A stretch of 61,953 bases of DNA, counting the filler. It is 12 parts of 12 records of this genome, joined end to end, with 100 filler letters (N's around TTAATTAATTAA, not from the genome) between each part and the next. Parts side by side here need not be neighbours in the genome. Positions count along the whole stretch, not along the records: positions 14,847 to 17,895 come from SRR7504441_63946; 11 more parts are not named here. One strand, given 5' to 3'. The number at the start of each line of letters is the position of its first letter. Position 1 is the stretch's first letter. Made by a program: the position numbers and the translations under genes. Shown in pieces: positions 5,249-52,513 of the stretch. A model generated the notes under the pieces. The model saw only the letters and a program-made list of their open reading frames with translations. It did no database searches and was not told where the DNA came from.

Positions 5249-5348
5249 NNNNNNNNNNNNNNNNNNNNNNNNNNNNNNNNNNNNNNNNNNNNTTAATTAA
5301 TTAANNNNNNNNNNNNNNNNNNNNNNNNNNNNNNNNNNNNNNNNNNNN
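5249..5348. other. Artificial contig-joining linker (first of 11)
   Basis: 100-nt N-TTAATTAATTAA-N spacer with stops in all six frames. Others at 11151-11250, 14747-14846, 17896-17995, 25345-25444, 29110-29209, 33655-33754, 37586-37685, 41439-41538, 44698-44797 and 54716-54815. Confidence 0.98.
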
Positions 5349-7655: not shown

Positions 7656-8723
7656 TCACGCCAGCTTCTTGGCCGAGGTGGCATTGAGGAAGGCGGCGTA
7701 GCCCTCCGCGGTGAGCGGGGTCTGCTGGTCGTTGATAGCCTGCTTGACAAACTTGCCGTCCGCCACATACAGGATCCGGTCCGCATAGCACTCGAGGTGC
7801 GGATTGTGCGTCACCTGCTACGGCTCCCGCCGCGCTCGCTGGCGGGAGCACCATTAGCATGGTGACTTGGCGCTCCTGGTTGAGCTGGAGCAGCAGGTTC
7901 ATCACCTCGACCGTGTTGACACTGTCCAAGTCACCAGTCGGCTCATCCAACAATACGAGCTGCCCCGGGCTCCCAACCGGCCGTGCCCCGCAGCACCTCG
8001 GGCCGATTCCCGAGCGATCGGGCGATGGTCACACGCTGCTGCTCGCCCCCGGACAGCTCGCACGGCAGGTGGCCCATCCGGTCACCCAGACCGACTAAAC
8101 CCAGAAGCTCGGTCGCGCGCGCAGTCACCTCATCACTCGAGATCTCGCCGAGCATGGTCATCGGGAGCTCCACGTTCTCGAGCGCCGAGGCCGAGGCCAG
8201 CAGGTTGAACGTCTGGAACACGAAGCCTGCCCACCGGCTCCGAACAGCGCGGGGTGTAGGGCGGGACCGATCTTGCTAAGCCGGAGTTGGCTTAGTCTTT
8301 TGTCGGTGGAGTCCTGGTCGATCTCCTCGCCGAGCAGCCCTGTTCCTCCAGCTCGGACAGGCCGGCGGGACCGACCCACGCAGCGTGCCGTCGGTGGGGC
8401 TGTCGATGGTACCGATAAGGTTGAGCAGCGTGGTTTTGCCCCCACCCGACGGCCCCCGGATCATAACGAACTCGCCCCTGCCGCCGGTCAGCTCGGGTTC
8501 GGCTCAGAATGGCACCGCTTGATCGGGCCGGCTGGGCAGTCGTCGGCCAGGGTGATGTCCCGCAGGGCCCAGACCTTCTCCTCGCGGTCGGCCAGGTCGT
8601 AGGCTGCCGGCCGCTCGGGCGCGCCAGGGAGGGGCGGGCGCCTTTGGAGACGTGCCTGAGCTCGATCATCGTCTCGGCCTCGTGTAGGCCCGGCTTGCCC
8701 GCCGAGTATATCGAGGCCGACAT
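7656..8723 (-). CDS. Stand-alone ABC ATP-binding protein, LolD/MacB-like (intron-containing)
   Basis: Walker [10 protein letters not shown]-loop FQTFNLL, signature LSGGEQQRV, Walker [11 protein letters not shown] and a VTH switch. Several ~37-38 nt introns. Start codon tentative. Confidence 0.85.
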
Positions 8724-10943: not shown

Positions 10944-11256
10944 TGTCTCGGCACTGATACAACTCCGAAGCGAGGCAACGCGAGGTTGGGTACCGCTTTG
11001 TCTTTAGTTTCGTTAGTTTTGTCTTGGTAGAAGTTTGTACACTTGCAGATCGCCATAGATGCTTGCATTGCGCCTACCTCAATGCATCTTCAAATTGAGT
11101 ATGAATACTCAGCCTATATAAATCAACCATGTAATAACTTGTCAGTGAAANNNNNNNNNNNNNNNNNNNNNNNNNNNNNNNNNNNNNNNNNNNNTTAATT
11201 AATTAANNNNNNNNNNNNNNNNNNNNNNNNNNNNNNNNNNNNNNNNNNNNGGTGAG

Positions 11257-14746: not shown

Positions 14747-14854
14747 NNNNNNNNNNNNNNNNNNNNNNNNNNNNNNNNNNNNNNNNNNNNTTAATTAATT
14801 AANNNNNNNNNNNNNNNNNNNNNNNNNNNNNNNNNNNNNNNNNNNNTTGAGGGA

Positions 14855-15448
14855 TTGGTTCGACACCCTCCTTATCAGCTGACGAATGCAACGAATAACT
14901 TGCGGAGAACAAACGGACTACCGCCGACTACTGATAATGTACAAAAGCTGAACCTTATTAAGGAAGCAGAGGCAAACGTAACTGAACGGAAACGCGCAGT
15001 AGCAAAAGCAGAGGCAAACCAAAAGGCCGCGGAAGCGCGTGAAGTCCTCTCAAGAACCCAATTTGTGTATTCTGCTGCCACCGAACTGACAGCACTGTTG
15101 AACGCTAAACGGTTGCAGACCAAGTCGAGCTTTTATGAAGCGTACTTATCCAACGAACAGGTCGATTCAGAAGGAGTGAAGTCGTATCCTTATTTCGAAG
15201 GCCTTAAACCCAAACTTGATACCCATCAGAATTTACGTAATTTGCGTGAATTGCTGGATCGTTACGAAAAGGAGTGCAAGGAACCTCTAGATATTCAGAA
15301 ACCATCTCATGATGCAGGGCATTGCCACAGAACAGAATCACCCGTTTGGCTCCGCCTCGCAGCCTGCGCAGCTCTGCCGGCTTGCACGCAACAGGGCTGT
15401 AAAACACGCAGCAGGTGTCCAGCTTGTCTCGAATGCATAGCCCAGTGA
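14855..15448 (+). CDS. Hypothetical protein fragment (coiled-coil-like, lower GC)
   Basis: Open frame running from the contig edge; no family recognised. Confidence 0.3.
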   Translation: MVRHPPYQLTNATNNLRRTNGLPPTTDNVQKLNLIKEAEANVTERKRAVAKAEANQKAAEAREVLSRTQFVYSAATELTALLNAKRLQTKSSFYEAYLSNEQVDSEGVKSYPYFEGLKPKLDTHQNLRNLRELLDRYEKECKEPLDIQKPSHDAGHCHRTESPVWLRLAACAALPACTQQGCKTRSRCPACLECIAQ

Positions 15449-15502
15449 GGTTTCCGGTAGGTCTGGGCTCGCCAGCTTTGTGATATACCGATTCCATTAG
15501 GG

Positions 15503-15967
15503 TCACACCCGACGCGAGGAGCTGCCCGCCCTCATGAGGAGATCCGCCCATTCATATGTTACCCGTAGCCGTGTGGCCGCCGCCATCCGTTCCCTGTCGG
15601 CTGGCGTCGGTGAAGGAAGATGCGGCATGACGACCACGTAAAACAGCCAGCCAAACGCCTGGGCGAAGCCCCGGCCGAACAGCGGAGCCCGGTAGATCAC
15701 GGCCTGGCAGTCGAGGATGAAGCACATCCAGTTGCCCATCAAGAAGCTCAGGCTATAGTCCGAGCGGCCAGATGCCGCGAGCAGCGCGGCGGTGAGCAGT
15801 GCGAGGACACCGCTGCCGCACCGAATGTGAGTGAGTGGGCAGCGCGGCCACCTGCTCAGCGCGTACACAATCAGCAGAGCCAAACAGACCGGTGCGGCCA
15901 GCGGGAGCAGCACGATGCCCAACGCACCGAACGGGCGGCCCTTGCCGCGCAGGTGCCTGTCGCCCAT
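15503..15967 (-). CDS. Hypothetical small membrane protein
   Basis: ATG at 15967, several hydrophobic segments, and an in-frame 39-nt GT-AG intron matching the genome pattern. 3' end uncertain. Confidence 0.5.
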   Translation of the reverse strand: MGDRHLRGKGRPFGALGIVLLPLAAPVCLALLIVYALSRWPRCPLTHIRCGSGVLALLTAALLAASGRSDYSLSFLMGNWMCFILDCQAVIYRAPLFGRGFAQAFGWLFYVVVMPHLPSPTPADRERMAAATRLRVTYEWADLLMRAGSSSRRV

Positions 15968-16000
15968 CCTCAACCGCTCATTCCGTTGCCGGAGCCAGGG

Positions 16001-17895
16001 GTGCGATCACGTGCTCGCGAGGGCAAAGGCCCCAAGTTCTACGCGGTGCAGCGTGGCCGGCGGCCGGGGGTGTACGCCAGCTGGTCAGAGTGCGAGGCCC
16101 AGGTGAACGGCTTTCCGGGCGCTGTGCACAAGAGCTTCCCCACCCAGGCCGCTGCCGACGCCTTCGCCGCCCCGCCAGCTGACGCCCCAACAGTCGCCGC
16201 ACCGCCGGCAGCAGCGCCGCCGCGCCGGCTGCCCTTTGGCTGGGGCGCGGTACACCCGCAGCCCAGTCGGCGGCAGCCCAGCCCGGTCCGGAGCCCTGCT
16301 GCGACCCCTACCAGCCCGGCCGCCCGCCGGCTCCCGGCTAGTTGGGCCGCGCGCAGCCCGGGGCGCTCTCCGGGGCTGGCCGACACGCCCGAGCCACCGG
16401 AGGAGGAGCGAGTGGAGGTGGGGGATAGTCTGGAGGAGCTGACGGCCGGGGCCGAGCCGCCAGTCCCGGACACAGTGCGTGGACAGTTCCCGGAGAGGCT
16501 TCGTCGGGGGCTGATGCCGTTCCAGCGGCGGGGGGTGCAGTGGATGCTCCAGCACGGCGGCCGGGGGCTGATAGGGGACGACATGGGGCTGGGCAAGACC
16601 ATCCAGGCGATTGCGGTGTGCTGCCTGCTAAGGGACGACTGGCCGGTGCTGGTTGTGGTGCCCAACTGTATGCGGCTGGTCTGGGCCGACGAGCTAGAGA
16701 AGTGGGTCCCCGACCTGCCCCCGGGCGCGGTGAGTGTCCCGATGCACGGGCGGGACACTGGCTCGTTCACAGACCCGGGCGTGAGTTTCGTGGTTGTGAG
16801 CTATGGCCTGCTCACAAAGAGCACGCCAGTGGCCCAGGCGGCCCAGGCTGCCAAGTTCCAGGTGGTGGTGGCCGACGAGTCCCATTACATTAAGAACCGC
16901 CAGGCCCAGAGGACCAGGGCGGTGCTTGGATTGCTCGCAGCAGCCAGTCGCCGGGTGCTACTCACTGGCACGCCCGCGCTGGGCCGACCGTGCGAGCTGT
17001 TCACTCAAGTGGACGCGATATCCCCAGGGCTGCTCGGCTCCTGGAACGCGTACACCACCCAGTTCTGTGCGGCCTACCAGGCGGCGTGGGGTTGGGACGT
17101 GTCCGGGGCTTCAAATCTGCCGCAGCTGCACGGCCTGTTGAAGAAGGTGATGATCCGGAGGAAGAAGAGCCAGGTTCTCTCTCAGCTCCCGGCCAAGCGC
17201 CGGCAGCTGATCAATCTCGAGCTCACTCCCGGCCAACTGGACGAGCTTTGCCAGATTCGGTGCGCCGGGTGCGGAGCTCAGGCTGACGGTGGGCAGCACG
17301 AGGCTGGATGAGTGTGCTGATGACCAGCCGGCCGAAAAGTTTGCTGTGTTCAGCGAGTACCATACCGCCTCGTCCAAGGCCAAGCTGGGGCCGGTGGGCG
17401 AGTACGTGGCCGGGCTGATCGCCGGGCTGCCGCCGCGTGGTAAGATCATCCTGTTTGGACACCACCTCGTCATGCTCGACTGCCTGGCCCAGGCGGCCAC
17501 CAAGGCCAAGGTGACTCTCAAACGAGCTTACCACCTCACAGCCGGCAGGTCGGGTTCATCCGAATCGATGGCAGCACTGCGGCCGAGGCCCGCCGCGACA
17601 ACGTGGAGCGGTTCCAGTCCGACCCTTCGGTGAAGGTGGCTGTGCTCTCCATCCTGGCGGCTGGGGTCGGGATAACTCTCACTGCGGCCTCGCTGGTGGT
17701 CTTCGGCGAGATGCACTGGACCCCAGGCGTGCTCGAGCAGGCCGAGGACCGGGCGCACCGGATAGGGCAGCAGAGCGCGGTGCAGGTGCAGTACCTGTGT
17801 GCGCCGGGCTCGATTGACGACTTGATATGGCCCACGTTGAGCAAGAAGGTCACTGTGCTCTCGCAGGCGCTCGACGGGATGGACGAGTGGTACGG
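16001..17895 (+). CDS. SMARCAL1/ZRANB3-like SNF2 translocase with N-terminal RNase H1 hybrid-binding (caulimovirus viroplasmin-like) domain; 3' truncated, start unresolved
   Basis: KFYAVQRGRRPGVYASWSECEAQVNGFPGAVHKSF is in one uninterrupted frame with LMPFQ, GDDMGLGKTIQA, VADESHYIK, LTGTPAL and MIRRKKSQVLSQLPAKRRQ. After two introns come KIILFGHH, RIDGST and EQAEDRAHRIGQ. Confidence 0.88.
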
Positions 17896-18335
17896 NNNNN
17901 NNNNNNNNNNNNNNNNNNNNNNNNNNNNNNNNNNNNNNNTTAATTAATTAANNNNNNNNNNNNNNNNNNNNNNNNNNNNNNNNNNNNNNNNNNNNAATGG
18001 CATTTGTTTGGTTCGCGCAGCGCTGACGGAGTCCTCTGGGCAAGGCGACGTGAGTATCAACAAATTCATCGAGGCCGTGTCGAGTCATCAGCACGGCATC
18101 GAGAGGATCGAGTCGACGCTCAACCAGTTGTTGGTCAACCATCCGAACCTGCTGGCAACCCCGCAAACAAATGCCATTACGCCTAAAAATGGCAAGAAGA
18201 AGCCCATGAGCACTGTGTAAATCAAGAGCTTGTGAACCATCACCTGTGTTGCACTCTTAGCTGCACCTTTAAAATCTAATCCAAAGCACGGGCGGGTTAC
18301 CATTTCCATGGTACTCAAAAACGGCGAGGAAGCCG

Positions 18336-18923
18336 ATGGACCTGCTCTCGATTTCTAAAAGAGGGAGCCACGGACTGCAAGAAATGGAGAGGAAAGCCAA
18401 TACTATCATCACTCAGGCGAATAAGGATACCACCGGCAAAATGCTGAGAGCTGCAGGGCGCGCGCTCGAGGCAGTTCTAAAGCAGCGCGAGCACGAAGCC
18501 ACCCAGTTTAAGAAGATCGAACAGGCATCGAACGAGCGGGACAAGAAGCGGTACTCAAAGAAGCTTTACCGGAAGTGGTCAAACGAAAAGGCGGCAACAG
18601 AAGGGATCCAGAGTGCGGATATGCTTGTCAATGCAAAGGAGAAAACAGCCAAGGATAACGCTAAGGAGATCAAATTTAAGGCACAGTCCGACCAGGAATC
18701 TGAGGCGACCGCAGACACAGATGCAGTGATCGCAAAGGAAACAGCGAACTTCGAGAAAGAGGAAGCCGTTGCTGCTGCGAGTAAAGCAGCTGGAGTTTTC
18801 GATGTGGACAGAGACCATGCCGAAAAAATGAAGCAGAATCCGGGACGACCTGTGTTCCATCTCAAGAATAAGAACGCAGAGCCAAGCGACGATGAAGGAG
18901 ATAAAGATCCAGCTGCGCTTTAG
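18336..18923 (+). CDS. Hypothetical charged helical protein (intronless)
   Basis: 195-aa Lys/Glu/Ala-rich ORF followed by AT-rich sequence. Confidence 0.4.
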   Translation: MDLLSISKRGSHGLQEMERKANTIITQANKDTTGKMLRAAGRALEAVLKQREHEATQFKKIEQASNERDKKRYSKKLYRKWSNEKAATEGIQSADMLVNAKEKTAKDNAKEIKFKAQSDQESEATADTDAVIAKETANFEKEEAVAAASKAAGVFDVDRDHAEKMKQNPGRPVFHLKNKNAEPSDDEGDKDPAAL

Positions 18924-19079
18924 GAAATCTAAAGGGCGATACAACATTGTATGATGTAATTTCCTAATTTATTTCTATTCAAATAAAGGATTCTAGCGAA
19001 TTCAGTAAGGCAAATGTTACTAGAGCTCTGTACCTATACTTGTACATTGCGAGAAAGCATAACATAGCATTATGTTTTA

Positions 19080-21509
19080 TTAATCATAGAGCGATGTGCG
19101 CTTACTAGCCTCAAGCTCAAACCTCTCTGGCTTCACGACAAGTAGTGTGATGATTGCAATAGCAGCATATGGTAAAAACAGCATCCACTTGAGAAGCTTG
19201 TAGAAGTGTACGTTGAATGATAGAGCATAGGAGTCTTCAAATACCTGACCGTGCTCGTTTCGCATGTTTACAACGACCATGCCAGAGCCACGGTACTCGG
19301 GGCTTGGTACCACTTCTGTATAAATGCCAGGCTTCGTGTACATCTTGGTCAGCAGTAACACAGACCCACCGATTGAAATTGTCACATTGTAGCTCCCATG
19401 ATACGAGGCCGCCATCGCCGCTGGGCGGCGGTCATGGATTTCGAACTGGACGACAAAAGAGCTCCCATGCACGTCTCGGTGAGTTCTCGAGCCTGCCAGG
19501 ACAAAGATGCTCTGCCATAGCTTGCTTGTGTGCATGGATGCGCCAAGCCCAACCGACGACCAACCGATCGTCGGGTGGAAGCGCCGCGACGTGCCAAACG
19601 CATACAGGTTGCCTGCCATGGTGCCGACGACAAGATCCAGCTGCCCATCGCCAGTGACATCCCCCGCAAGTACCATGCCATATGCCGATTCGCCAATGTC
19701 GACTCTATGCATACAAGATCCCTTGCCATCGATTACGTAGATGCCACCGTCAAAGCTCGGCACGACCAACTGCATCACACCACCGCCGCTGCTCCCATGC
19801 GGAGGCGGCTTGATCTGAGTCAGGAGAACTGGGGCAATCAGCTTGCCCTCAGTCTTAACTGGAAATCCCTCCAGCGGCTCGCCGGTCTTACCATGCAGTG
19901 CCCACACATGGCCGGCAGTGGTCGCTACTACGACATCAAGCACCCCATCCCCATTCACGTCGCCGATCGTGGCCCCCTGTGATGCAAATCCAGATATCCG
20001 ACGCGTCCAGTGCTGTCTGCCTGAGCCAGCAAAACAGACAACATTCCCTGAGGCATCTGCTGCTATCAGGTCGAGTGCACCATCTGCAGTGACATCCTCC
20101 ACCGCCACGGACCCCTGGATCTCGCCGATCTGAAGAGGAAACCCGGAGTGTGTCTTGCCATCCTCATCCAGCACGTATATGAAACCTACAGAGGTGCCCA
20201 CCACCACATCAAGCCTGCCGTCACCGTCAACGTCAGCAGCAGTTGGAGTAGTATAGATGTAGGCTCTAAGCATTGTTGTGTCAGTAGTCAGGTCCAGATG
20301 CTGGCTCCACTTGACAGTCTTGGTGTCCAATTGAAACACCACCACGCCCCCTGCCACATACTTGGATACCTGCACGTCTGGTGGAATCGGCGCACGAGTC
20401 CCGTCGTCCCCTAGCTCTTCCCTATCAAAATAGTAGCTCACCGACACGATCAGCTCCGGCCGGCCGTCATTGTCCAAGTCCGCAATCGTTGGAGTGGCCA
20501 TGATGTGTCCGTCCACCAGCACGTGCTCATCATCGTCCTCGCCACGTGCATGCAGCTTGGCCAAGTGCTCCAAGTACTCTGGCGCTCTGAGCGGGTCCAT
20601 CTGCTGCTGTGCAGCGGTCTCGTGCTCCAGCTCACTCAACTGCGCCTCGGGCGGCCGGAGCAGGTCGAGCGAGGCCATCCCAGCCTTGGTGAGGGTACCA
20701 CCCCACGCGCCCTGTACCGGGCCTTGCTTCTTTGGGTCGATCTTCACGTAGTCTTCACGCTGTGCCTGCACGCTCAGCAACCGGCGTGTGGTGTGCTCCT
20801 CGTCCAGGCCCACGTACCACTTCTTCCTCACCACCAGGGGCGGCACCTGCCTCTGCAGTCACACCCAACCCGCGTGCCTGCACCTTGAGAGTCCACCCGA
20901 CCAGCGGTATGCCTGTCTCTCGCAAGAACACGATCTCGCCGTCGTTTGTGGCCACGACTACTTCGCGCACCCCATCTCGGTCGACGTCGTACAGCAGCGG
21001 GGAGGCGTGGAACGAGGACTTGCTGAATGTGAACGGCCAGCCAGCGGCGGTGTGCCCATTCTCGCCCTCAGTGACCTCGATGTAGCTGGCACACCGGGTC
21101 AGAACCGCTCACCCCTGGGCCCGACCGAGTAAAGCTGGCGCTCAGCACCTCGGCCGATCCGTCGGCGTGCAGGTCCGCGATCACCGGCGTCGAGTAGAGG
21201 CCGGACCCAGCCTGCCGCCGGCTGGCCGCCAGTCTGACTCGGCCGGACCTCGGACATCCAGCGGAGCCGGAGGTCCATCTCGCAGCCAGCGGAGCCGTTT
21301 CCGTGCCGAGCCCCGAAGATCACCTGGTCCGGCTCGGACGCGGCCGCGGGCGGCGGGCGCACGTCCTCGATGGCGAGCGGACTGCTCTCGCGGTACGGAT
21401 TGGGGTCCAGGTCGGCGTCCTTGGCCACCGGGTTGGACAGCTGGCCTGCCGCAGGGCCGACGGCTAGCACAACCAGCAGGCCCGATAGAAGCTGGCCGTG
21501 GCGGTGCAT
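19080..21509 (-). CDS. DEX1: DEX1-like FG-GAP/VCBS repeat beta-propeller type I membrane protein
   Basis: Signal peptide MHRHGQLLSGLLVVLAV, repeated DxxGDGxLD motifs, VDGHIMATPTIADL, VSVSYYFD, KYVAGGVVVF, RAYIYTTPT, and C-terminal TM HFYKLLKWMLFLP. Short introns in the 5' part. Confidence 0.85.
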
Positions 21510-22708: not shown

Positions 22709-22903
22709 GTCGGGTGCCGTGCGAGTTCATTCGCCAGGAGCACGTGATGTGTGCTCGACGGGAGTTCGGCTTCCCGCCAAATTTTTGTTGCCAGTGCTCG
22801 CACGCGGGGCACGGGCGCACGGTGCGTCCCTCGCCGCTCAGAGTACCAGTCCGGGGGTTGGCGAGCAAATCAGCCGGACGGGCAGCGGGGCACTGAGCGG
22901 ACG

Positions 22904-25000
22904 ATGGGCTCCAAGCGTAAGTCGTCCACCACCACCCTGTTGCTCTCGCGGGTCCGGTCACACGCGGCGCACCACGACGTGAGCGACCCGCAGGCTGTGG
23001 CCGATCAGCTGCGGGCGATCTACCCAGACTACACCCGGCTGCCGCGGAACGTGTTTGTGGCCAACGTGCAGAGGGCGATCCAGCAGTACACTGTGGCGAT
23101 GGTGCCTCCGGCTGACCCGCCAGCAGCCCAGGAGGAGGAGGAGCAGGACGACGGCCCGGAGCTCGAAGCCAACCATCAGGAGTTGGGCGGCAACGCAATG
23201 AACGCGGCGGTCAGGCAGATGTACCAACCTAAGCCTCAGGAGCGCCGGCCCGAGGAGACTGCTGACCGCAGGCCCAAGCGCAAGGCGCCGGCTGGCCCAG
23301 CAGGCGAGGCCAAGCGGGCCCGGGCGGCCAGCCAGCGGCCCACTGCGCGGTATGCAGACCTGGGCGGGATGGACAGCTGCCTCCAGGAGGTGCGTGAGTT
23401 GATCGAGTACCCGCTCAGGCACCCTGAGATCTACCTGCACCTCGGTGTGGACCCGCCGCGCGGTATTCTGCTGCACGGCCCACCTGGCTGCGGCAAGACG
23501 CTGCTGGCCAACGCGGTTGCAGGCGAGATCGGCGTGCCCTTCCTCAGGGTGTCGGCCCCTGAGCTGGTCTCCGGCATGTCGGGGGAGTCCGAGAAACAAG
23601 TCCGTGAACTGTTTGAATCGGCTGCTGCGTCGGCGCCTGCAATTGTTTTTATAGACGAGATCGACGCTGTGGCCCCCAAGCGCGAGACCGCCCAGAAGGA
23701 CATGGAGCGGCGGATCGTGGCTCAGATGCTCACCTGCATGGACGATTTGAGCTTAGAGAAGACCAACAACCAGCCTGTTTTAGTGATCGGAGCTACCAAC
23801 CGGCCCGATGCGCTCGACGCTGCCCTCAGGCGGGCCGGCCGGTTCGATAGAGAGATTTCGATCGGGATACCCAACGGAGAGTCGCGCGCCCGGATCATGA
23901 AGGTGATCACGAGCAAGATCCGGCTCAGCGGTGACTTTGATTTCGACCAAATAGCCAGCATGACGCCCGGATTCGTGGGAGCTGACCTTAGTGCGCTCGC
24001 AAAGGAGGCGGCCGTGCTGGCAGTTAACCGGATATTCGCCGAGATCTTGCCCTCCGGCCCTGCCACTGGGCAGGACGAGCCCCAGAGCGCCCCAACGGCG
24101 CTGGCCAACTGGCAGGAGCCATTCTCGCAGGAGCAGTTGGCGCCTCTCTCAATCACGATGGCGGACTTTGAGCTGGCTGTTACCAAGGTGCAGCCTTCCT
24201 CCAAGCGGGAAGGTTTCACCACCGTACCGGACGTGACCTGGTCAGCGATTGGTGCGCTGGATGCAGTGCGGGCTGAGCTGGATATGACCATCTGCCAGCC
24301 GATTCGTAACCCGGATCGGTTCAAGCGGCTAGGGATCTCGAGTCCGGCCGGGGTGCTGCTGTACGGCCCACCCGGCTGCGGCAAGACCTTGGTGGCTAAG
24401 GCCGTGGCCAACGAGTCTGGGGCCAATTTCATCTCAGTCAAGGGGCCGGAGTTGCTTAATAAGTACGTCGGCGAGAGTGAGCGCGCTGTGAGGCAGCTTT
24501 TCTCGCGGGCGCAGGCCTCTGCCCCGTGCATCGTGTTCTTTGATGAGATGGATGCGCTGTGTCCCAACCGCGGCTCAGACTCGAATCAGGCGACTGAGAG
24601 GGTGGTGAACCAGCTTCTGACAGAGCTGGACGGAATTCACACACGCGAGCAAGTCTTTGTAGTGGCGGCCACCAACAGGCCGGAGCTAATAGACTCAGCA
24701 ATGAAGCGGCCGGGGCGTCTCGACAAGCTGCTCGAGGTCGGGCTCCCCGACTGCGATGGAAGGGTGTCGATCCTCAAGGCTGTCGCTCGCAAAACTCCAA
24801 TTACTGACAAGGTGGACTTAGCTGCTGTGGCCGCCGATCCCCGCTGCAACGGCTTCTCAGGCGCCGATCTGGCTGCTCTGGTCCGCGAAGCGGCAATATG
24901 CGCATTGCGCGCCGGGGCTGAGGGAGCGGTGGCGCCGGAGCATTTCGAGTCAGCACTCGGCGTAATGAAAGCTTCGGTCGGCCGCAAGTTTGCCTATTGA
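22904..25000 (+). CDS. NVL: Nuclear VCP-like type II AAA+ ATPase (Rix7/NVL2), intronless
   Basis: Two AAA modules (GPPGCGKT twice, FIDEID, FFDEMD), [18 protein letters not shown] and an NVL-type N-terminal YPDYTR motif. Confidence 0.93.
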
Positions 25001-39292: not shown

Positions 39293-41184
39293 ATGCCCCT
39301 GGCCTCCGAACTGCAAGCGGCGCAGCAGCTCATCGCCCAGTGCGAGCAGGTCAAAAGCCAGGCCGAGCTCGCCGCCCTCAAGGTCCGCCCCCCCGCTTGC
39401 CCCAAGCATCGGGTCGCAGGCCGGAGTCTCCCTCTCACCGGAGCGGCGGTCCCCGGCCCCCGGGCTAGACTTGGCCCAGGCGGAGGCCGCGGTCGCCCGG
39501 AGCATCGAGCTCATCGAACACCGCGTCCGCCAGGTGGCCGGCCTAGCCCCCCACTCGGGTTTATGGGGTATGGTGGCGCCCTCGCGGGTGTGGGGTGCTC
39601 GACTTGGTAATCTGGTCGCCGTGCACGAGACGGCCCAGTAGTGTCCCCACGCCACCCTTGGGTCGGCTGGAACCCACCGGGGGGGGGGCAGGTGTCTGGG
39701 CACCCCAAGAAATGGAGTAGAGAGCGACAGCCGGCTGAGGCCGCGCGCAACTATAGCCTCTCTCAGTAGGCCCGGCGCCCGGGCAATCTCACAGCGTGCC
39801 TAGGTCCGGGTCGCCGGGCCTGGCGGTGGCCGATTTGGCTCTCTCCGCCAGCCCGGCCCGCCGTCGCGGCCGGCAGCCGGAGATGCTAGTACGGGCGATG
39901 CACACGTGTGAGCGGCGGATGCGCGTGCTGCATAGCCACTTCCCGACCACCGTGCTGCTCGAGAGAGCGGTCCAGACAGAGCCGCCAGTCCAGGATGTCT
40001 CGATACAGGTGGCCAGGCCCTGACGGGTCTGAGCTAACCGTGGCCAACAGGTGGGAGCTTCCAGCGACGCCAGATACGCTGAGGCCGCAAACCAGGCAGC
40101 CGATATGTGTGCGTGGCATGAGCCCGGTGGCAGACGCCCATGCTGCTCCGGGGCACCAAGGTCGGCCCGAGCGTGGCGAATGAGATTGTACCTCCAGACG
40201 ACAGGCGGAGGATCGGCGGTGCAGGCGGCCAGCCCGGCCGACAGACTGCTGAGCGGCCCGGCAGAGCTCGATGCGCTGCTCCGGTCGTGCTTTGGTGCCG
40301 GGAAAGATAAGCTTGGGGCGTTCGAGGTCGGGTCCGCGGTCATAGCGACCCTAAAGCTGCCTGAAACCACATGCTGGCCAGCAGCGAGGGTGCGATGATT
40401 CAATCCCAGCCGGGTGCGCTCACTGCATGGCAGATCAAGGCGGTTGCGGCCGCCAGGGCCCGGCAGCACCTCCGGAAACGCACCTCTTACGCCGAATGGC
40501 TCTGGCTGCTTGCTGGCCGCCCGTTTTGCAGCCTGCTTCCGGTCTCCCAGCCGGCAGCTACCCTCAGCCAAATGGCTAGCAACGCGTCGCAGCTCGAGCC
40601 GCGGTGCGCCTCGCCCCGCCGGCCGCTCAGTTGCGGGCAGGTTGGAGCCCAGGAAGCCTCAGCCGCCCCCGGCGGTGCGCGCCGACCCACTCAAGCTCGG
40701 GCTGCTCGACTTGGATTCCTCCGACTCGCCCAGCGGGCATTTGACAGCCCGGCTGGAGGCAATGGCTGGTGGGACGGTCCCTCCGATCCTGGCCTCCCAG
40801 CTCTGGAGCACAGGCGAGCCTGCCAGCCGGCCGGGATGAGTGTGGTCAGATTTGATGCGGAGCTCCCCCCGCCCCGAGTCTCGAGCCCCAACCTCCCCCG
40901 GCTCACCGGCCGGGCCCCAGCAAGCCGTGCAGTCGGAGCTTGGCCAGGCAGTCGTCGAGCCGCCGGCGCAGATCCCGTCGGTTGTCGAGCTGAGGCCGGT
41001 GGAGCAGCCATTGGACGACAAACGTGCCGAGCTGGAGCGAGTGGTGGCCGCACAACGGGCCGAGATGGCCGCACTCCGGGATCGGATTAGGCCCGTCGGT
41101 CCGTCACGGGCTGAGCGGATTAAGCGTGAACTGGCCGCGCAGGCAGAGGAGATTGCAAGGCTTCAGGCGCAATTGCCCCAGTGA
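39293..41184 (+). CDS. Hypothetical multi-exon protein with coiled-coil termini
   Basis: Coiled-coil-like N-terminal (ELQAAQQLIAQ) and C-terminal (ELERVVAAQRAEM) exons with several short intron-like interruptions. Confidence 0.4.
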
Positions 41185-42503: not shown

Positions 42504-44697
42504 ATGAGGGCTCTTCTACTCTGTGCTGCAGCAGCAGCCGCGCTCGCCAGCAGCGCGGACTCGTGGCACGAGAGCACCGCCATTGAGCCCCTCGGGGACG
42601 AGCTAGGGGGCAACTCCGCGACCGAGGTGCCTCAACCCCCGTGCGGCCCGCTATCCCTGGCCTGCCTGCACTTTGGGGCTGATCGTGCCGTCGCAGATAC
42701 CTCACGACTCCAAGCGCGCCGCCTGGCTCCACAAGAAGCTGGACGAAGTGCGCTCCAAGTGCAAGACACCGCTTGAAAAGATCAGCAACTTCACGGTGAG
42801 ATCCGCCTCCTCCGGGCTGCAGCTCTCTCGTCCGGCCGCCAATCGACCCTAGTTGGCACCGGGCGCCGGCCGCTGATACGAGGCCGTCTGTCGGCAGGTG
42901 GGCAGGACCACCAAGCAAACTGTCGAGGGCACCGAATACCGCGCCACAGTGAGCGCAGGTGCATCCCCCAGCTATCGGCCCGATCTGACGACACGTCTGT
43001 GGATCGCAGACGGTGTCGACAGGAACATCACATTCGTCCGTTCGCTTCCGAACGAGCAGCAGATCCACCACTTCACCAAGGGCAAGGGGGCGGGCGACGT
43101 CAAGGACCTTTTTCACCTCAAGGCTATCCATCCACACCCATGCGGTGCCGACACAGCAGTCCTATCAGAGGAGAGCGAGGAAACAGACGCCGAGCTCGCC
43201 GCCAAGTATAAGACCGGGCTGGTCATGCCGGAGCGGCTGGAGTATGCCGACGTGACCGTGAGTGCGGAGGAGCTCGCAAGACTGCCAACCGACTTTGACT
43301 GGCGCGACGAGATCCAGAGGCGGTACGGGGAGGCGGCTAAGGCTGCGACGGCGCTCAATCAGGGCTCGTGCGGCTCGTGCTGGGCGTTCGGGGCTGCCAC
43401 TGCGGCTGGCTACAGATCGGTGATTGAGTCGGAGGGGCACTACAATGTGGTGCCTTCGACTCAGGTGGGTATGAGCTGCGCCAAGCCTCCGCCAGGCAAT
43501 CCATGCGGCGGCGGGTGGTTTAATAACTTCTACGACGCCATGAAGGACCACGATGTCCCTGCCAACTGGGCTGTACCCTACACTCAGGAGGGCGGCGATT
43601 GCGTTGTGTCCTCTGACTCGATTCCCATCAAGGGTGGCACATCGCCGAGTATTAGAGGCGTGGACGCTATGATGGTCGAACTACACAATAACGGACCCTT
43701 CGGCTTAGCGATTGATGCGAACCAGTGCTTTCAGCGCTACAGAAGTGGTGTTGCTGATTGCACAGGCGGCCGCGTCACACATGCCGTAGTGGCAGTGGGC
43801 TTTGGCACCGAAAATGGCAAACCCTACTGGCTAGTCCAAAACTCGTGGGGTGCTGGCTGGGGCGACAATGGTTTTATCAAGGTCGCTCGAGGGAACAATG
43901 CCCTGAATATGGAGCATGCCGGAGCTCAACCAAACTACATCTCCGAAGAGAGCATGGCCTGCCGGAACCAGCCAGCCTGCAAGAATGGTGAGCCGCCCTT
44001 CCCCAGGCCGCGGTGCTGGTAGCTGACAGGCGGCTGTCTGTCGACAGGCGGTGCCTTCAAGAAGGACTGCTCCTGCAACTGCCGCTCGGGTTATTCTGGT
44101 CCGACGTGCGATTCTTGCGAGAAGAGCTGCAGTGGCAACCAGTTCACAGGCCAAGCCGCAATCACTGCCGGGAAATGTGCATGCAAGTGCAAGGCTGGGT
44201 ACATCAGTCCGGCCAACCTGCTTGGGTACTCGGATTGTGCGCTGCAGATGCAAGTAGGCAGCTCCTCCTCTTCTATGGTGAGTGTGGCCCGCAACGCCCA
44301 AGTGAGCGTGGCCTACTCTGTTGTGGGCAGTGCCCCTTCTGATCCGATCCAGAACGTTAAGAAAGGCGACATGCTTGTGGCTGTCGCAGCTGGAACCGCA
44401 CCGTGGACTGCCGAGGGCGGGTGGACAACTGACATCAAGGCCGACGTGTGTGGGCCCAAGGCTTGGCCGGCTGAGGTATGTGCCTCCAGCACACCCAAGC
44501 TAACATTCAGCAACGACGGCGTGTATGAGGTCTTCTTCGTCAAGTACCTGGGCAAGTCCGAGTTTGGAACAGACAAGGGATACGGCAGCGACTTCATGGC
44601 TCTACCCCAGCGAATCTGTGTGGGGAGCGCCGACTGCGATGCTGGATCCGGATCGGGCTCTGGATCCGGCTCGGGCTCTGGATCTGGCTCGGGCTCT
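42504..44697 (+). CDS. Secreted papain-family (C1A) cysteine protease with EGF-like and C-terminal extension (3' truncated)
   Basis: Signal peptide MRALLLCAAAAALASS, LPTDFDWR, NQGSCGSCWAF, THAVVAVGFG and YWLVQNSWG. Cys-rich EGF-like segment, then a (GS)n linker at the contig end. Confidence 0.88.
44644..44697 (+). repeat. Gly-Ser coding tandem repeat
   Basis: GGNTCN hexamer array at the contig end; probable cause of the assembly break. Confidence 0.8.
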
Positions 44698-47008
44698 NNN
44701 NNNNNNNNNNNNNNNNNNNNNNNNNNNNNNNNNNNNNNNNNTTAATTAATTAANNNNNNNNNNNNNNNNNNNNNNNNNNNNNNNNNNNNNNNNNNNNACT
44801 GGGCTGCAAACCTCAGCGAGGAAAATCATCCGGCTATTGTGCTGTTTTCCGGCGTTTCGCTCAAGGTGACGGCATATGGGGTTCCGAGCTCGTGGGCGCC
44901 ACTGTGCTACGTGGCCCGGGGTCTTTTAAAAGAGTCAGATCTCCTGGCTCTACTGTAGTTTGACGAAGCTCCTCTTCGCCGAATACGCAGACGCGTACAG
45001 GCAAGCAGCAGCCGGCAGACACACCCTAACTGATTCGTGCACACAGGGACAAGCCACTAGAGCCATACCGCCAGAACGCGCTGCGGAGTATTCCAGCTAG
45101 GGAGTTTGCCGGCGAGCGCAACTTTAAAAAGATTCCCAACTACAGGAATCAATCACAAATCTCGTGAGTTGGCTGTTTAATTAATGGTTCCAAGTTAGGG
45201 AGCAGGTTTCACGGCATGGACGGCCACTCATTCGTTGACAACACAAAGCTGCGGTATTCTACAATAACTGGCCTCGCTCATGACTGTGAAGCGGTCACAA
45301 AATTTGTTACGGATAATCCATGCATCACATCGGGGTTGTCGTCAAAGATGCATAAAAAGGTATTCAAGTGATCAAGCCCGTAACAAAACTATCGGAACAA
45401 ATTGCAACATCAAGATGATAATTATCATAGTACGAGTAAGTAAAACCATACTCTAGTATTCATTATTGATTGACATCAATTGAACTTGTTGAACTCCATT
45501 ATTACATTATGGATTGACACAGGATGGACAATCGGTCAAACTCTATTGTAGTCACACTTGCGATTACAAGCGTACACTAACGTACACTCGCACTTTCCGC
45601 CAGACTGCGTTAGGCATGGCACTGGCGACGACAATCAGTTGTCTGGTAATAGCATTAATCAAGTATTCTCGCTGTCTTGGCCGTGCTGAGTGTAGGCCAA
45701 ACGCCAGTGCAACGTGTAAATCTTTCATCCTGCACGTGCCCAAGATATGTTTGCGGGTGTAGCTGCTTTGCTGATGCCGCATCCTGCCGCACATTCAGCT
45801 CTTGTGAGGCGGAAAGCAGCAGATCTCGGGAGGCTGAGGGCAGTTGTTAAAGGCGTCAGCAACTTGAGCTGATTACATGTCGGCTACGGTACGGCCAGAG
45901 CCCCCCGACAGCCAGGAGGGTCTTAAGCTCCATTCAAGAACACGGACCAAGTACAAAATCATCACACGCCATAAGCAAGCAAGTGCTGGGTGGGCTCACC
46001 AGCAGCAATTGATTCAGTTCAGCTTGAGAGAGCGGCGGCCCATCGAGCCTGGCCACCTGGCACAACCATCGCTTTGAGAAATCAGAAGCGATGGATCGAG
46101 CTTGGCGGGCTCTGGGCAAGACTCATTCTCAATCACGTTTCAGGCTGCGGTGCGAGCGCAGATCAATTCTAGTGCAGATATGGTTCGATCCTCGTCTAGG
46201 TGCACAGCCGGGCTCTTTGAGTGCGGTACACACCTCGCAGCCGCGTCCCGGCGTTGTGCTCGGGTAGCTGTCGGTCGATCCACCTGGAGCCGGTCAGTGT
46301 GGTACGATGGCACAACTCTCAGGCACACAGTCAGCGATAGAGGCTGTAAAATCGTTCGGCCCGTCCTAAAGGCTGCAGCTTGGCTGCACTTTTCTCTATG
46401 CGTTTTGATAATGCGGCCAGCCGGGAGGAGCCGACAGGCCACAGGGTAAAACGCACACTCGGACTGGGCGGGTGTGGGGGGGGCACCTAGCCCATCATTT
46501 GCGTGTCATTCGGCTGCTGGAGGACGATAAGTCGCGGCGACGCCACAGGGCGCGTTCACACCGACGTCGCAGCACACCTGCGACACGAACTTGGGTGAGC
46601 CCGCGGCTGTGACTGACGATCGACGCGGCCGGACGGCTACGACTGGCCTCAGCCCTATCGATCAGGGCACACGTGGCGAGCGCAATCGCAGCTAGCTCAG
46701 CCGCCACCGACCCGAGGCATTTCGGCCGCGGATCGTTGGAGGCAAGCCCGCTGCAGCCGCGCTCACGGATTCACGGCCTGGGTGTGAAGCCAGGCGCTGC
46801 ATATTTCATAATCACAGGCCAACCGGGGCACAAGCGCGCGCGGGCACGGACACACCTGCGTCGCAGCTGCTTGCCGGCCCGTTCATCGTCGCTGGCACCG
46901 CGCGCCGCCATAGGTACTGACGCCTCGAGCGCTGGCAAAGGCTGGCAAAGCACTCCGCCTCGACGCTCGAGCTTCCGTTATTCCCCGGGACCGTATTTGA
47001 ACGGGCCG

Positions 47009-48573: not shown

Positions 48574-49737
48574 CTACATTGACGGCCGATATCTCTTGGC
48601 AATCACATCATTGTGAGCAGAGAAGCCCGTTCCTCCCGTCCTCAGCTCTATAACATCGCTATCCGTGAAGCTCTTTCCTGTGACTGGACACTTCATTTCT
48701 GGCTTGGCGAGCTCGTCAAAGCACTTTTTCAACATAACCTGGCCAGAGCTGCCCAAGCACATGTGACGGTCAGACAGCACGAATAGCGAGACCTTCTAAT
48801 CAACACAACTTTTTGGTGCTTCAGTTCTTTCTTGGAGACCGCACACAAGAATTCGGCCTGTCACCCGGCGTCAGGCGCTGGCCAGCCCGAGGCTCACCTC
48901 GCCAGAGTCGTTCTCTAACTTGAGTATATCTAACGGAATCAGATCCTTGAGTTTGAGCGGCTCTCCTGACATTGGGCTCCGGGGTCGCTTCTCGGGCTGC
49001 GCACACTCAACACCCGAGCCGGCCAGCGCCCGGCACCTTCTGGATGGCGGTCGAGACGTTGTCCGGAGTCGAGTCGGGCACCCAGAAGGTCGAATTGAGG
49101 AACTTTTTCCTCTTCTCCGTCAGCTCGCCAGACACGCCGTCGCGCTTGCCTCCGATCATCTGCTTGAGCAGCTCCTTCCCGTCCCCCGCCACCCGCTGCG
49201 CCGACCTGTCTGTAATGCTCTCCTGCGCACACACTTGGGCCGGCCGCCTGCACTCAGCCTCACCTGGCAGTCGATGAAGTCCTGCAGGCTGTTCTCGCGC
49301 GCGGTCTCGGCCTCCACCGTTTTATCGGCAGCTAACTTGGCCTGCTGCGCATCGTACAGCTTGGTCTGGCGCTGGATGTCCTTTTTCTTGGCGAGCAGGT
49401 ACTGGGCCCAGGGGGTGAGCCGGGGCCCAGGGCAGGCCGGGCACCTCCATGATGTACTCGCGGCTGTACATGTGCCCCGACGGCCTGAGCCAACCACTCA
49501 GCGCGCACCACGGGCCGCTGCTCACGTCGCCATCGGGTCCACGCACTGCTGCAGAGAGAGCGAGCAGTATCCGAAAGGCATGTGCGCGTCGCTGCCCAGC
49601 CGCTGCTCGAGGGTGCCTTGCCAGCCATCGTGCCACGAGCCAAACTGCGATCCGTACCCACCCTCTCTGGCGTACTGGAACTCCCGCCGGTGGAACTTTG
49701 AGCTCGAATTGGCGTTCTTGGAGTGCTTCTGCGGCAT
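48574..49737 (-). CDS. NOSIP: Nitric oxide synthase-interacting protein (U-box/RING-like)
   Basis: MPQKHSKN, QRLGSD..PFGYCSLSL, PSGHMYSREYIMEYLL, FWVP, LKLKDLIP, CPVTGK and LRTGGTGFSAH. Confidence 0.9.
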
Positions 49738-51214: not shown

Positions 51215-51781
51215 ATGCTTACCTCGCTCAAACCCGGCATGAATCACCCCCTCGCTCTCGTCTGTGTATCGGTTCTCTCGTCTGGGGGCGCCGACCTCGT
51301 ACTTGAATTCCCCTTCGCAAAAGAAGATCGCCGAAGGCCGCTACCTGCCATAGTTGATAAGGTGTATGATGAGGTGATCTCAATGTGCGCTGATGCTGAG
51401 CAGCTTCTGTGCGTCTGCTTGGTTGGTTCGTGGATCCCGGAATCAACTCGGATGGAGAGGGCCTGTGAAGAGGCAAACGGGATTCTCTACAAGGTCTACG
51501 AGAATCAGAAATCCACTCCAACACAGAAATCTCCGCCATTGACAGGGAATTCTGCAGTAGATAAAGGATTGAAATTGCCATATCGGCTGGCACGTTACGA
51601 CTCTACAAAGCAGAAGCTGATCCAACAGCGACATGGGATCAAAACAGTACCGGCATTCCTATTTTACTACAACAATAAGCTATTGGCGGTCACCAAGTAC
51701 TGGAACACTTCAGGAAGGACGCGAAGAGATCTCTTCATTGAACTGGACAAACACAAAGTGAATGGAACCAGGATGAAGTAG
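51215..51781 (+). CDS. Thioredoxin-like fold protein lacking CxxC (possibly partial)
   Basis: HGIKTVPAFLFYYNNKLL cis-Pro-like motif; intronless, lower GC. Confidence 0.45.
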   Translation: MLTSLKPGMNHPLALVCVSVLSSGGADLVLEFPFAKEDRRRPLPAIVDKVYDEVISMCADAEQLLCVCLVGSWIPESTRMERACEEANGILYKVYENQKSTPTQKSPPLTGNSAVDKGLKLPYRLARYDSTKQKLIQQRHGIKTVPAFLFYYNNKLLAVTKYWNTSGRTRRDLFIELDKHKVNGTRMK

Positions 51782-52513
51782 ACTTGTTGGACTTGTAATG
51801 TTCTCAATCAATCAAAGGTCTTTGATCAGTCTTCCTTGGATTGATTGAACAGTACACAGAGACCTAACACAGACCTAATTTAACAAAGACATATTAATAT
51901 GTCTGTATTGTGCACACCCTATGAGGGCTTACAATAGGTTTACAATGCTGCCCGCATTATGCTTTGAACAAAATTAATTAATAATTATTAATAGTTGAGC
52001 ACCACCCGGTCCGGGGTCTGGCCCTTTGTTGTGACCGTGCAGGAGACGCACTCGACCCAGCAGCCCAGGCGCTCATCCATCCCGGGGTTATCACGCATGG
52101 GACTACATGTATGAAAATTAAATGATGGAACTAATAAGTCACTTCTTAGTTACTTCTCTTGAAAGTGGAGAGCAGAGATGAGCTCGTAACTGCTCGTTAT
52201 TGATATTGTCGATCGTGACGGTTGTGGATAATTATGCTTAAATTATGCTAACGCCGAGGTTAAGAACTTTAATTAAATAAAATACTGAAGGTTGCGGACG
52301 CGGTGTAGATTCTTTAATTACTATTCACAGAAGTGACAAAAGCAATTTCAAGAAACTAATAAGTACTTGAAGAACGTAGGTACGCAGTAAGTAGAAGGTT
52401 CCACACTTCTTGTATATAAAGTACATGTGAGGAGCTTGGTGTCAAAATTAAAGAACTCATATCGTAGCTGCAGCCTCATTCCTGTTGTGATGACCAGTTG
52501 CATCCCAATGAAG

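Follow-up and report, generated by a model that had tools for sequence, protein, structure and literature searches.

The window analysed here is a stretch of 61,953 nucleotides in which 13 contigs are joined by N/TTAATTAATTAA spacers. The candidate gene lies on the plus strand of a single 3-kb metagenomic contig from a marine eukaryote (14847–17895). An N spacer follows from 17896, and the end of the feature at 17895 is simply that of the contig. Once two short introns are removed, the gene model runs for 606 amino acids and contains no stop codon. Its features and those of a divergent neighbour are collected in Table 1. The left end of the contig gives no match to E. coli genomes, the dinoflagellate spliced-leader motif has no match in the window and a comparison with Rfam returned none either.

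Table 1. Coordinates of the candidate gene and its divergent neighbour, in positions of the window.
Feature	Position	Strand	Basis
Divergent ORF, 154 aa, with hydrophobic stretches	15506–15967	−	Third-position GC, uninterrupted frame
In-frame lead-in to the domain, beginning with GTG at 16001, without ATG	16001–16033	+	Sequence
RNase H1-type hybrid-binding domain (Pfam PF01693 Cauli_VI), complete	16034–16165	+	Pfam profile and solved-structure alignment
Linker of 107 residues, Pro/Ala/Arg-rich (aa 56–162)	16166–16486	+	Composition, motif coordinates
SNF2 motor N-lobe, still exon 1	16487–17259	+	SNF2-rel_dom, alignment to P0001, motifs
Intron 1, 37 nt, GTGCGC...GGGCAG, frame-shifting	17260–17296	+	Homologue alignment, intron scan
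Exon 2, inter-lobe region and start of the C-lobe	17297–17510	+	Alignment to P0001 aa 359–429, codon GC
Intron 2, 38 nt, GTGACT...CGGCAG, phase 0	17511–17548	+	Homologue alignment, intron scan
Exon 3, motor C-lobe (Helicase_C), cut by the contig end	17549–17895	+	Pfam, homologue alignment, motifs

The hybrid-binding domains of RNase H1 are selective for RNA:DNA hybrids. When the 436-residue translation of window:16001-17311:+ was compared with Pfam, residues 12–55 matched the Cauli_VI profile from end to end (1–44 of 44, E = 2.7e-21) with 76 bits, the curated cut-off being 21 bits. The RNase H1 N-terminal domain that a preliminary description of this DNA had placed at about 16034–16165 is thus present in full. 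It also aligns with the solved hybrid-binding domains of human RNase H1 (3BSU, E = 1.8e-11) and yeast RNase H1 (1QHK, E = 8.6e-11), as well as with entry 6VRD (E = 1.6e-10). Among the residues of the human binding surface, Trp (W43) and Lys (K59) are kept, while F58 is replaced by His and K60 by Ser. Excerpts of PMC6846478 describe the roles of W43, K59, K60 and F58 (the last through an FKK deletion) in the human hybrid-binding surface.

Further along the same ORF, residues 174–412 match SNF2-rel_dom (E = 2.5e-35). The motor opens with the conserved lead-in FPERLRRGLMPFQ (16487–16525) and its N-lobe motifs I (GDDMGLGKT, 16574–16600), II (DESH, 16874–16885) and III (TGTP, 16964–16975) are intact. 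Across 16439–17260 it is 59% identical to its relative P0001, with no insertion. The alignment to homologues falls into three pieces (16439–17260, 17301–17525 in another frame, and 17546–17878), which is explained by two GT–AG introns of 37 and 38 nt. A homology-free intron scan was noisy (89 candidates) and only those candidates that agreed with the homologue alignments were kept. With intron 1 removed, the stretch from KRRQ to SKAK counts 43 residues, equal to the number counted in the sequence of P0121. The FGHH motif of exon 2 is found at 17454–17465, and third-position GC in the frame of this exon is 0.82–0.84. Downstream of both introns, Helicase_C is matched with E = 1.5e-12, and exon 3 contains IRIDGS (17558–17575) and an intact motif VI (QAEDRAHRIGQ, 17738–17770), about 40 residues before the contig stops.

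The two Pfam matches, motifs I, II, III and VI and the named best matches, ZRANB3 and SMARCAL1, agree with the assignment of the ATPase to the SMARCAL1/ZRANB3 subfamily in the preliminary description. Its observation that no HARP domain stands upstream of the motor is borne out too: PF07443 has no match in the 436-residue ORF at E ≤ 0.01. The proposal that everything lies in one stop-free frame stands up to 17311 and fails beyond it, given the stop at 17309–17311 and then the two introns. AlphaFold2, run on the 436-residue ORF without an alignment, gave a mean pLDDT of 36.5, too low for the model to be of use.

The hybrid-binding domain and the start of the motor therefore share one ORF and one coding exon, as the two Pfam matches attest, and the Pro-rich linker that had been noted between them keeps to the same exon and frame. 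This linker contains 24 Pro and 20 Ala among its 107 residues and is presumably disordered. The short motif RRLPxxWxA occurs in it twice (16223–16249 and 16325–16351), and in the frame shared by domain and motor the copies diverge by synonymous changes at the third position of Leu and Pro codons. It also harbours a low-complexity tandem array, CGCCGCGC, at 16195–16227. When the linker DNA was shuffled 20,000 times the frame stayed open in 32% of cases, so an open frame across the linker is by itself weak evidence of coding.

An assembly chimera could produce the same picture in two ways. A join within the GC-rich, low-complexity linker (about 16166–16440) would have brought together a domain and a motor from different loci or organisms, while a join just upstream of the domain (about 15968–16030) would leave the fusion real and its true 5' exon lost. 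The CGCCGCGC array and the fact that everything rests on a single short metagenomic contig speak for such a join, as do the lack of a visible start codon, the unusual 66-nt high-GC spacer that separates the domain from the divergent ORF and the failure of the searches to find the architecture anywhere else. Against it, domain and motor stand in one frame with alike third-position GC (about 0.8 in each), the linker would make a credible disordered peptide, in which a motif is repeated and its copies differ synonymously, and an independent contig from an RNA library reproduces 16192–16342 with one mismatch. In addition, this position is taken up by a nucleic-acid-binding domain and a long linker in the nearest relatives as well. 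We consider a chimera distinctly unlikely.

The RNA-library contig comes from a read-based coverage check, in which four runs yielded short contigs only and all eight listed runs contained at most 0.10 of the sampled words. These contigs cover 16192–16342 (RNA), 16486–16674, 16811–17207 and 17682–17832. Positions 14847–16191 are uncovered and the junction between domain and motor is unbridged in the four low-coverage runs, where a lack of coverage speaks neither for nor against the fusion. The contig that matches the linker is 151 nt long, stems from a poly-A RNA library and gives a weak hint of expression.

At the 5' end, no ATG is found in any plus-strand frame across 15916–16513. The sole in-frame ATG upstream is at 15620, where the codon-position GC fits the minus-strand ORF instead. 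This pattern turns to the frame of the domain at about 15970–16000 and fits it from about 16000 onward. Over the divergent ORF the minus frame is uninterrupted, plus frame 0 has several stops and minus-strand third-position GC is 0.76–0.88 in windows starting at 15597–15897; its product matches no Pfam family and has no usable Atlas match. This ORF sets the 5' limit of the candidate gene. From the ATG of this ORF to the first codon of the domain there are 66 nt with about 69% GC, whereas the spacers of other genes in the window measure 300–1400 nt with GC below 52%. The short GC-rich spacer is thus atypical and could reflect a misjoin at the 5' end. Formally, 133 combinations of an upstream ATG and one GT–AG intron reach the frame of the domain (for example ATG 15915 with a 44-nt intron at 15985–16028), and all of them overlap the minus-strand ORF.

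The ATG at about 16514 that the preliminary description had pointed out does exist and is the first on the plus strand after 15915. It sits inside the conserved lead-in ...FP..L...LMPFQR.GV, and the part of this lead-in upstream of the Met is common to P0001 and P0121. Since 15916–16513 is free of ATG and 16514 falls within the conserved lead-in, the coding sequence cannot start between domain and motor. This bears on a reading in which the assembly is correct and the locus makes two products, the motor being translated from ATG 16514 or from a transcript that starts downstream of the domain, which would leave the domain as a small gene of its own, a relic that is not translated, or an alternative 5' exon. 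Such a reading would make use of the first available ATG; P0001, the nearest relative, has no recognisable domain before its motor, and in the relative P0003 the called protein begins with a Met that precedes the MPFQ motif by 11 residues. Yet a start at 16514 drops the FP..L...L lead-in, and the interval 16166–16513 offers neither an ATG nor room for a second promoter and start. As the frame of the domain has no stop before 17309, only an intron that shifts the frame would allow the domain a gene of its own. A decayed relic is hard to reconcile with a full-length Pfam match of 76 bits and a GC periodicity of the coding type. We therefore judge two separate products to be very improbable.

The motor was placed among its relatives by a quick IQ-TREE search on 93 rows, and the domains of the relatives were labelled with local profiles seeded on Pfam-defined segments. 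It groups with P0001 (NZF, a RanBP2-type zinc finger) and P0121 (HRDC, NZF and HNH) with an SH-aLRT of 98, and next with P0002, P0122 and P0123 (SH-aLRT 99), whose cluster mates carry RQC, NZF and HNH. P0001 and P0121 are metagenomic; the others come from dinoflagellates, P0122 and P0258 from Polarella glacialis and P0002, P0123 and P0261 from Biecheleria cincta. In the tree, the motor and these relatives stand apart from the HARP clades, and by this placement the motor is ZRANB3-type rather than SMARCAL1-type.

In the nearest relatives, a nucleic-acid-binding domain and a long linker precede the motor. This N-terminal module is HRDC in P0121 and RQC in P0002, P0004, P0005, P0123, P0258 and P0261; no recognisable domain was found before the motor in P0001, nor in P0122, which is partial and truncated at its N-terminus. 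A nucleic-acid-binding add-on before the motor is thus normal among the nearest relatives, because members of the clade carry HRDC or RQC there. At the C-terminus, P0121, P0258 and P0261 have HNH and a substrate-recognition domain. The parts of P0121 and P0001 beyond the motor find no match elsewhere in the window. According to excerpts of PMC12841045, ZRANB3 has its substrate-recognition domain, NZF and HNH on the C-terminal side of the motor, where the human protein also has its PCNA-interaction motifs (PIP box and APIM).

The preliminary description had the domain replace the substrate-recognition module, which is not supported: the ZRANB3 counterpart of that module lies behind the motor and hence off the contig, and the relatives carry HRDC or RQC N-terminally in addition to NZF and HNH behind the motor. 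As HRDC or RQC occupies the same position in the closest relatives and NZF and HNH follow the motor, it is more likely that the hybrid-binding domain was swapped into an interchangeable N-terminal add-on slot.

The preliminary description had also called this architecture new to characterised proteins, and a second fusion of domain and motor was found in none of 252 motor relatives, 240 related loci and 289 phage records. The 30 nearest named Atlas clusters are SNF2-only, none with the fusion. When only the domain served as query against longer proteins (764–2180 aa), which is a weak form of evidence, 20 candidates came up and none was significant. Nothing turned up in a literature search that joins 'hybrid binding domain' with 'annealing helicase' or 'ZRANB3' with 'dinoflagellate'; as far as their excerpts indicate, papers that join 'hybrid binding domain', 'SNF2' and 'RNase H1' look like R-loop reviews, and those on 'Cauli_VI' look unrelated. 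Comparative support is accordingly absent, the fusion being a singleton on one 3-kb metagenomic contig.

Taken together, we favour with moderate confidence one plus-strand gene for a ZRANB3-type SNF2 annealing translocase with an N-terminal hybrid-binding domain and putative targeting to hybrids or R-loops. The fusion is probably a real variant of a known family, and the hybrid or R-loop targeting is what we infer from its domain. The likeness to ZRANB3, also called annealing helicase 2, lies in the SNF2 motor, which is 58–59% identical to P0001, has intact motifs and groups with NZF- and HNH-bearing proteins. The difference is at the N-terminus, where ZRANB3-type relatives have HRDC, RQC or nothing and the present protein has the RNase H1 hybrid-binding domain. 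SMARCAL1 belongs to the same SNF2 subfamily, and the HARP-bearing matches are 37–44% identical to the motor. It shares the logic of an annealing motor with an accessory targeting module. However, SMARCAL1 has HARP before its motor, whereas here there is no HARP and the motor falls outside the HARP clades. RNase H1 has the homologous N-terminal domain, and there too a flexible linker connects it to an enzyme. In RNase H1 the tethered enzyme is an RNA-degrading nuclease, while here it is an ATP-driven translocase. Any hybrid removal would therefore proceed by strand displacement and not by hydrolysis.

R-loop or hybrid remodelling by the candidate protein is a reasonable inference. Excerpts of PMC12841045 (in vitro, citing Hodson et al. 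2022) and PMC10641170 credit human ZRANB3 and SMARCAL1 with remodelling or removing R-loops. The fusion could also be real and have another target. The domain would then recognise Okazaki fragments at their RNA-primed ends, or duplexes that are dsRNA-like or of another kind, and would thereby position a fork-reversal enzyme where forks have stalled. In the sister proteins, HRDC and RQC may have a comparable role. These DNA-structure-binding modules of RecQ helicases stand at the same position, which suggests a general slot for the recognition of forks or junctions. The exchange of two human binding-surface residues points the same way, as does fork reversal, described as the main role of ZRANB3 in excerpts of PMC12841045. 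Against this, the closest solved relatives of the domain are RNase H1 domains, and excerpts of the same review already have human ZRANB3 acting on R-loops in vitro. We regard another target as rather unlikely, and tentatively prefer the targeting of hybrids or R-loops.

In a mechanism based on this targeting, the domain would bind an RNA:DNA hybrid and tether the motor beside R-loops or hybrid-containing forks. The motor would translocate on the flanking duplex and re-zip both DNA strands, so that the RNA would be expelled by migration of the branch point or a fork stalled at the hybrid would be reversed. Beyond the contig end the protein probably continues, as in the nearest relatives, with an NZF zinc finger and an HNH nuclease. 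A bolder version, which we put forward tentatively and hold at somewhat less than even, is an R-loop-targeted annealing helicase, in which a ZRANB3 orthologue is aimed by the domain of RNase H1. It would clear hybrids by ATP-driven re-zipping of DNA, possibly with HNH cleavage, rather than by hydrolysis of the RNA, and would belong to an alveolate-related clade that swaps HRDC, RQC and the hybrid-binding domain as N-terminal selector.

Excerpts of PMC12841045 state that the molecular details of R-loop action by the fork remodellers ZRANB3 and SMARCAL1 are unknown, and the excerpted evolution section of this review does not describe a slot for interchangeable N-terminal selectors in protist ZRANB3 proteins. 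The alternation of HRDC, RQC and the hybrid-binding domain suggests that protist ZRANB3 proteins may possess such a slot. If the present reading is true, the fusion would be a natural test of whether tethering to a hybrid suffices to make an annealing helicase an R-loop remover, and engineered R-loop tools could be modelled on it. For the family, it would be a natural demonstration that plug-in substrate selectors re-aim fork remodellers.

The 436-residue open frame translated from positions 16001–17311 (+) contains a complete RNase H1-type hybrid-binding domain close to its N-terminus (Pfam PF01693, Cauli_VI; residues 12–55, 44 of 44 profile positions, 76 bits, E = 2.7e-21). The solved human (PDB entry 3BSU, E = 1.8e-11) and yeast (1QHK, E = 8.6e-11) domains align to it as well, and the peptide reported in the preliminary description, with its coordinates, is thus real and far beyond chance. 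The proline-rich linker proposed there is confirmed as a segment of 107 residues (24 Pro, 20 Ala and 11 Arg), after which an SNF2-related domain at residues 174–412 (E = 2.5e-35) confirms the motor. Pfam reports no HARP domain in the 436-residue frame, in agreement with its described absence ahead of the motor.

The gene is located on the 3049-nucleotide contig 14847–17895. The window of 61,953 bases is composed of 13 such contigs of 3.0–9.9 kb, joined by spacers, and contigs adjacent in it are not necessarily adjacent in the genome. Other contigs carry eukaryotic genes, namely DEX1-type, NVL-like and papain-type genes (see the table) and a leishmanolysin-like piece. A share of at most 0.10 of the 31-mers of the fusion gene is found in marine and estuary metagenomes. 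The sequence is accordingly taken to derive from a marine eukaryote, through a draft or binned genome. Coding regions of the window have a GC of about 0.65, rising to 0.8–0.9 at third positions, and alternate with low-GC stretches (<0.52, 300–1400 nucleotides; for example 14847–15446, 17996–19395, 44898–45797 and 51298–52897). These stretches are not repeats of one another and probably represent intergenic or UTR sequence.

Features of the window and their coordinates
Feature	Position	Strand	Basis or remarks
Spacers	5249–5348, 11151–11250, 14747–14846, 17896–17995, further ones likewise		N runs around TTAATTAATTAA
Short-intron candidate	8497–8539	+	Noisy frame-joining scan
Divergent ORF	15967 down to 15506	−	154 residues, hydrophobic; strong third-position GC bias
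Hybrid-binding domain	16034–16165	+	Pfam
RRLPxxWxA, copy 1	16223–16249	+	Linker
RRLPxxWxA, copy 2	16325–16351	+	Linker
Intron 1	17260–17296	+	GT–AG, 37 nt; homologue alignment
Intron 2	17511–17548	+	GT–AG, 38 nt; homologue alignment
DEX1-type FG-GAP/beta-sandwich protein	19080–20858	−	Long unbroken frame
Short-intron candidate	20847–20883	−	Noisy frame-joining scan
NVL-like double-AAA ATPase with nucleolin-binding domain	22748–25000	+	Long unbroken frame
Short-intron candidate	40390–40433	+	Noisy frame-joining scan
Papain-family protease	42877–44022	+	Long unbroken frame
Short-intron candidate	49223–49263	−	Noisy frame-joining scan
Short-intron candidate	57360–57396	−	Noisy frame-joining scan
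Short-intron candidate	61624–61661	−	Noisy frame-joining scan

The single stop-free frame claimed for 16001–17895 does not exist, as a stop is present at 17309–17311. The closest homologues align (tblastn) as three collinear pieces, 16439–17260, 17301–17525 in another frame and 17546–17878 again in the first frame, with gaps that are due to two GT–AG introns. Removal of both yields a model of 606 residues without stops, in which the stretch from KRRQ to SKAK, counted by hand, measures 43 residues, the same as in the metagenomic relative P0121. Third-position GC (0.8–0.9) tracks exactly the three exon frames. The last exon encodes Helicase_C (E = 1.5e-12) and motif VI. The contig end truncates the gene about 40 residues past motif VI. 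The region behind the motor, where the substrate-recognition domain, NZF and HNH of ZRANB3 are situated, lies beyond this end and is not found elsewhere within the window. Introns of this organism seem to be very short (37–44 nucleotides), mostly with a GTG start and a GCAG end, and homologue alignment confirms only the two of the motor gene.

An open frame over the linker carries little weight by itself, because the frame also stays open in 32% of shuffled linkers. That domain and motor form a single coding sequence is supported by three other arguments. No ATG occurs in any plus-strand frame from 15916 to 16513. The first ATG past the domain, at 16514, lies within the conserved lead-in FP..L...LMPFQR.GV, of which the part upstream of this methionine is common to the closest relatives, and coding must therefore reach further upstream; a separate motor gene would have as its sole start codon one that truncates a conserved element. 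Finally, the frame of the domain has no stop ahead of the first intron, so that a separate domain gene would require a frame-shifting intron. Within the linker the motif RRLPxxWxA, which may be a short interaction motif, occurs twice. Between the copies, Leu and Pro codons read in the frame of the domain have synonymous third-position changes, which hints slightly at selection acting on the peptide. A 151-nucleotide contig from a poly-A RNA library matches 16192–16342 with one mismatch, a hint that the linker is expressed; it reaches neither domain nor motor.

At the 5' end of the gene, upstream of about 15970, codon-position GC fits the divergent minus-strand ORF, which has no Pfam or Atlas match, and not the plus-strand frame of the domain. 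Only 66 nucleotides of about 69% GC separate the ATG of this ORF from the first codon of the domain, whereas other genes of the window are set apart by stretches of 300–1400 nucleotides with GC below 52%. As a start for the frame of the domain, near-cognate codons (GTG at 16001 and others) are available, but no ATG. An upstream ATG can formally be joined to the frame of the domain through one GT–AG intron in 133 ways, all of which overlap the minus-strand ORF. Non-canonical initiation, a lost 5' exon or a contig misjoin just upstream of the domain are the possibilities; none of them breaks the link between domain and motor, but the contig as a whole becomes less trustworthy.

The preliminary description had called the motor SMARCAL1/ZRANB3-type. 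The subfamily stands, and from its position in the tree the protein is best called ZRANB3-type rather than SMARCAL1-type. Its named best matches are ZRANB3 (44–49% identity) and SMARCAL1 (37–44%). Accessory domains were labelled in 257 proteins by local profiles seeded on Pfam-defined segments, and both motor lobes were matched in 183 of these. In a quick-search tree with SH-aLRT support alone and an arbitrary root (92 rows plus the window, keeping all rows with rarer labels and at most 22 each of the HARP and no-label classes), the motor clusters with the metagenomic proteins P0001 (NZF) and P0121 (HRDC, NZF and HNH; SH-aLRT 98) and next with P0002, P0122 and P0123 (SH-aLRT 99) from the dinoflagellates Polarella glacialis and Biecheleria cincta. 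All of these fall within the NZF/HNH region of the tree, apart from the HARP clades. Fuller cluster mates are P0258 (RQC–motor–HNH) and P0261 (RQC–motor–NZF–HNH).

RecQ-type modules precede the motor in protist ZRANB3-type proteins (HRDC in P0121; RQC in P0004, P0005 and the Polarella and Biecheleria proteins P0002, P0123, P0258 and P0261), and no mention of them was found in the evolution section of a ZRANB3 review (PMC12841045). GRF zinc fingers occur in another group of the same SNF2 subfamily.

In the nearest relatives the motor is preceded, across a long linker, by an HRDC or RQC module that binds nucleic acid; here this position is taken by the hybrid-binding domain. ZRANB3 has its substrate-recognition domain, NZF and HNH behind the motor (PMC12841045). 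Replacement of the substrate-recognition module by the domain, as first proposed, is less likely than the domain filling an interchangeable N-terminal slot.

No second example of the fusion was obtained in searches centred on close motor relatives; fusions of the domain to other SNF2 subfamilies may exist. PF01693 is absent from the best 120 of 2831 matches, and none of the best 150 of 52 857 representative matches aligns to the domain. Against 252 motor relatives the domain gives a best phmmer E of 0.69, and none of 11 matches scored on residues 1–215 has both families. A search with the domain alone among longer proteins returned no fusion, which is weak evidence. The domain is not found within 3–4 kb in 240 related loci (80 each of metagenomic, prokaryotic and viral origin), is covered by none of 289 phage records and PF01693 is absent from 30 Atlas clusters. 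No publication on a fusion of a hybrid-binding domain with a ZRANB3-type motor was found.

When aligned with the solved structures, the domain retains two residues of the surface by which the human domain binds, the Trp and one Lys (residue roles from PMC6846478); F58 is replaced by His and K60 by Ser. Hybrid binding is plausible from these residues, though of uncertain affinity and selectivity. Two reviews (PMC12841045 and PMC10641170, citing Hodson et al., 2022) credit human ZRANB3 and SMARCAL1 with remodelling or removing R-loops, in vitro according to PMC12841045. In the simplest mechanism that we infer, the domain would dock onto an RNA:DNA hybrid and the long linker would allow the motor onto the adjacent duplex, where ATP-driven translocation would re-anneal the DNA strands and extrude the RNA or, as a variant, reverse a fork stalled at the hybrid. 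Further downstream the protein probably carries an HNH nuclease as well. As a live alternative, the domain would recognise RNA-primed Okazaki ends and in this way orient fork remodelling.

There is one instance of the fusion, on a contig that is short, truncated and of metagenomic origin and on which no start codon is visible. We lean towards the full reading of a real gene for a ZRANB3-type motor with an N-terminal hybrid-binding domain, and hold the bare domain–motor fusion with greater confidence. This fusion probably adds a new variant to a known family.
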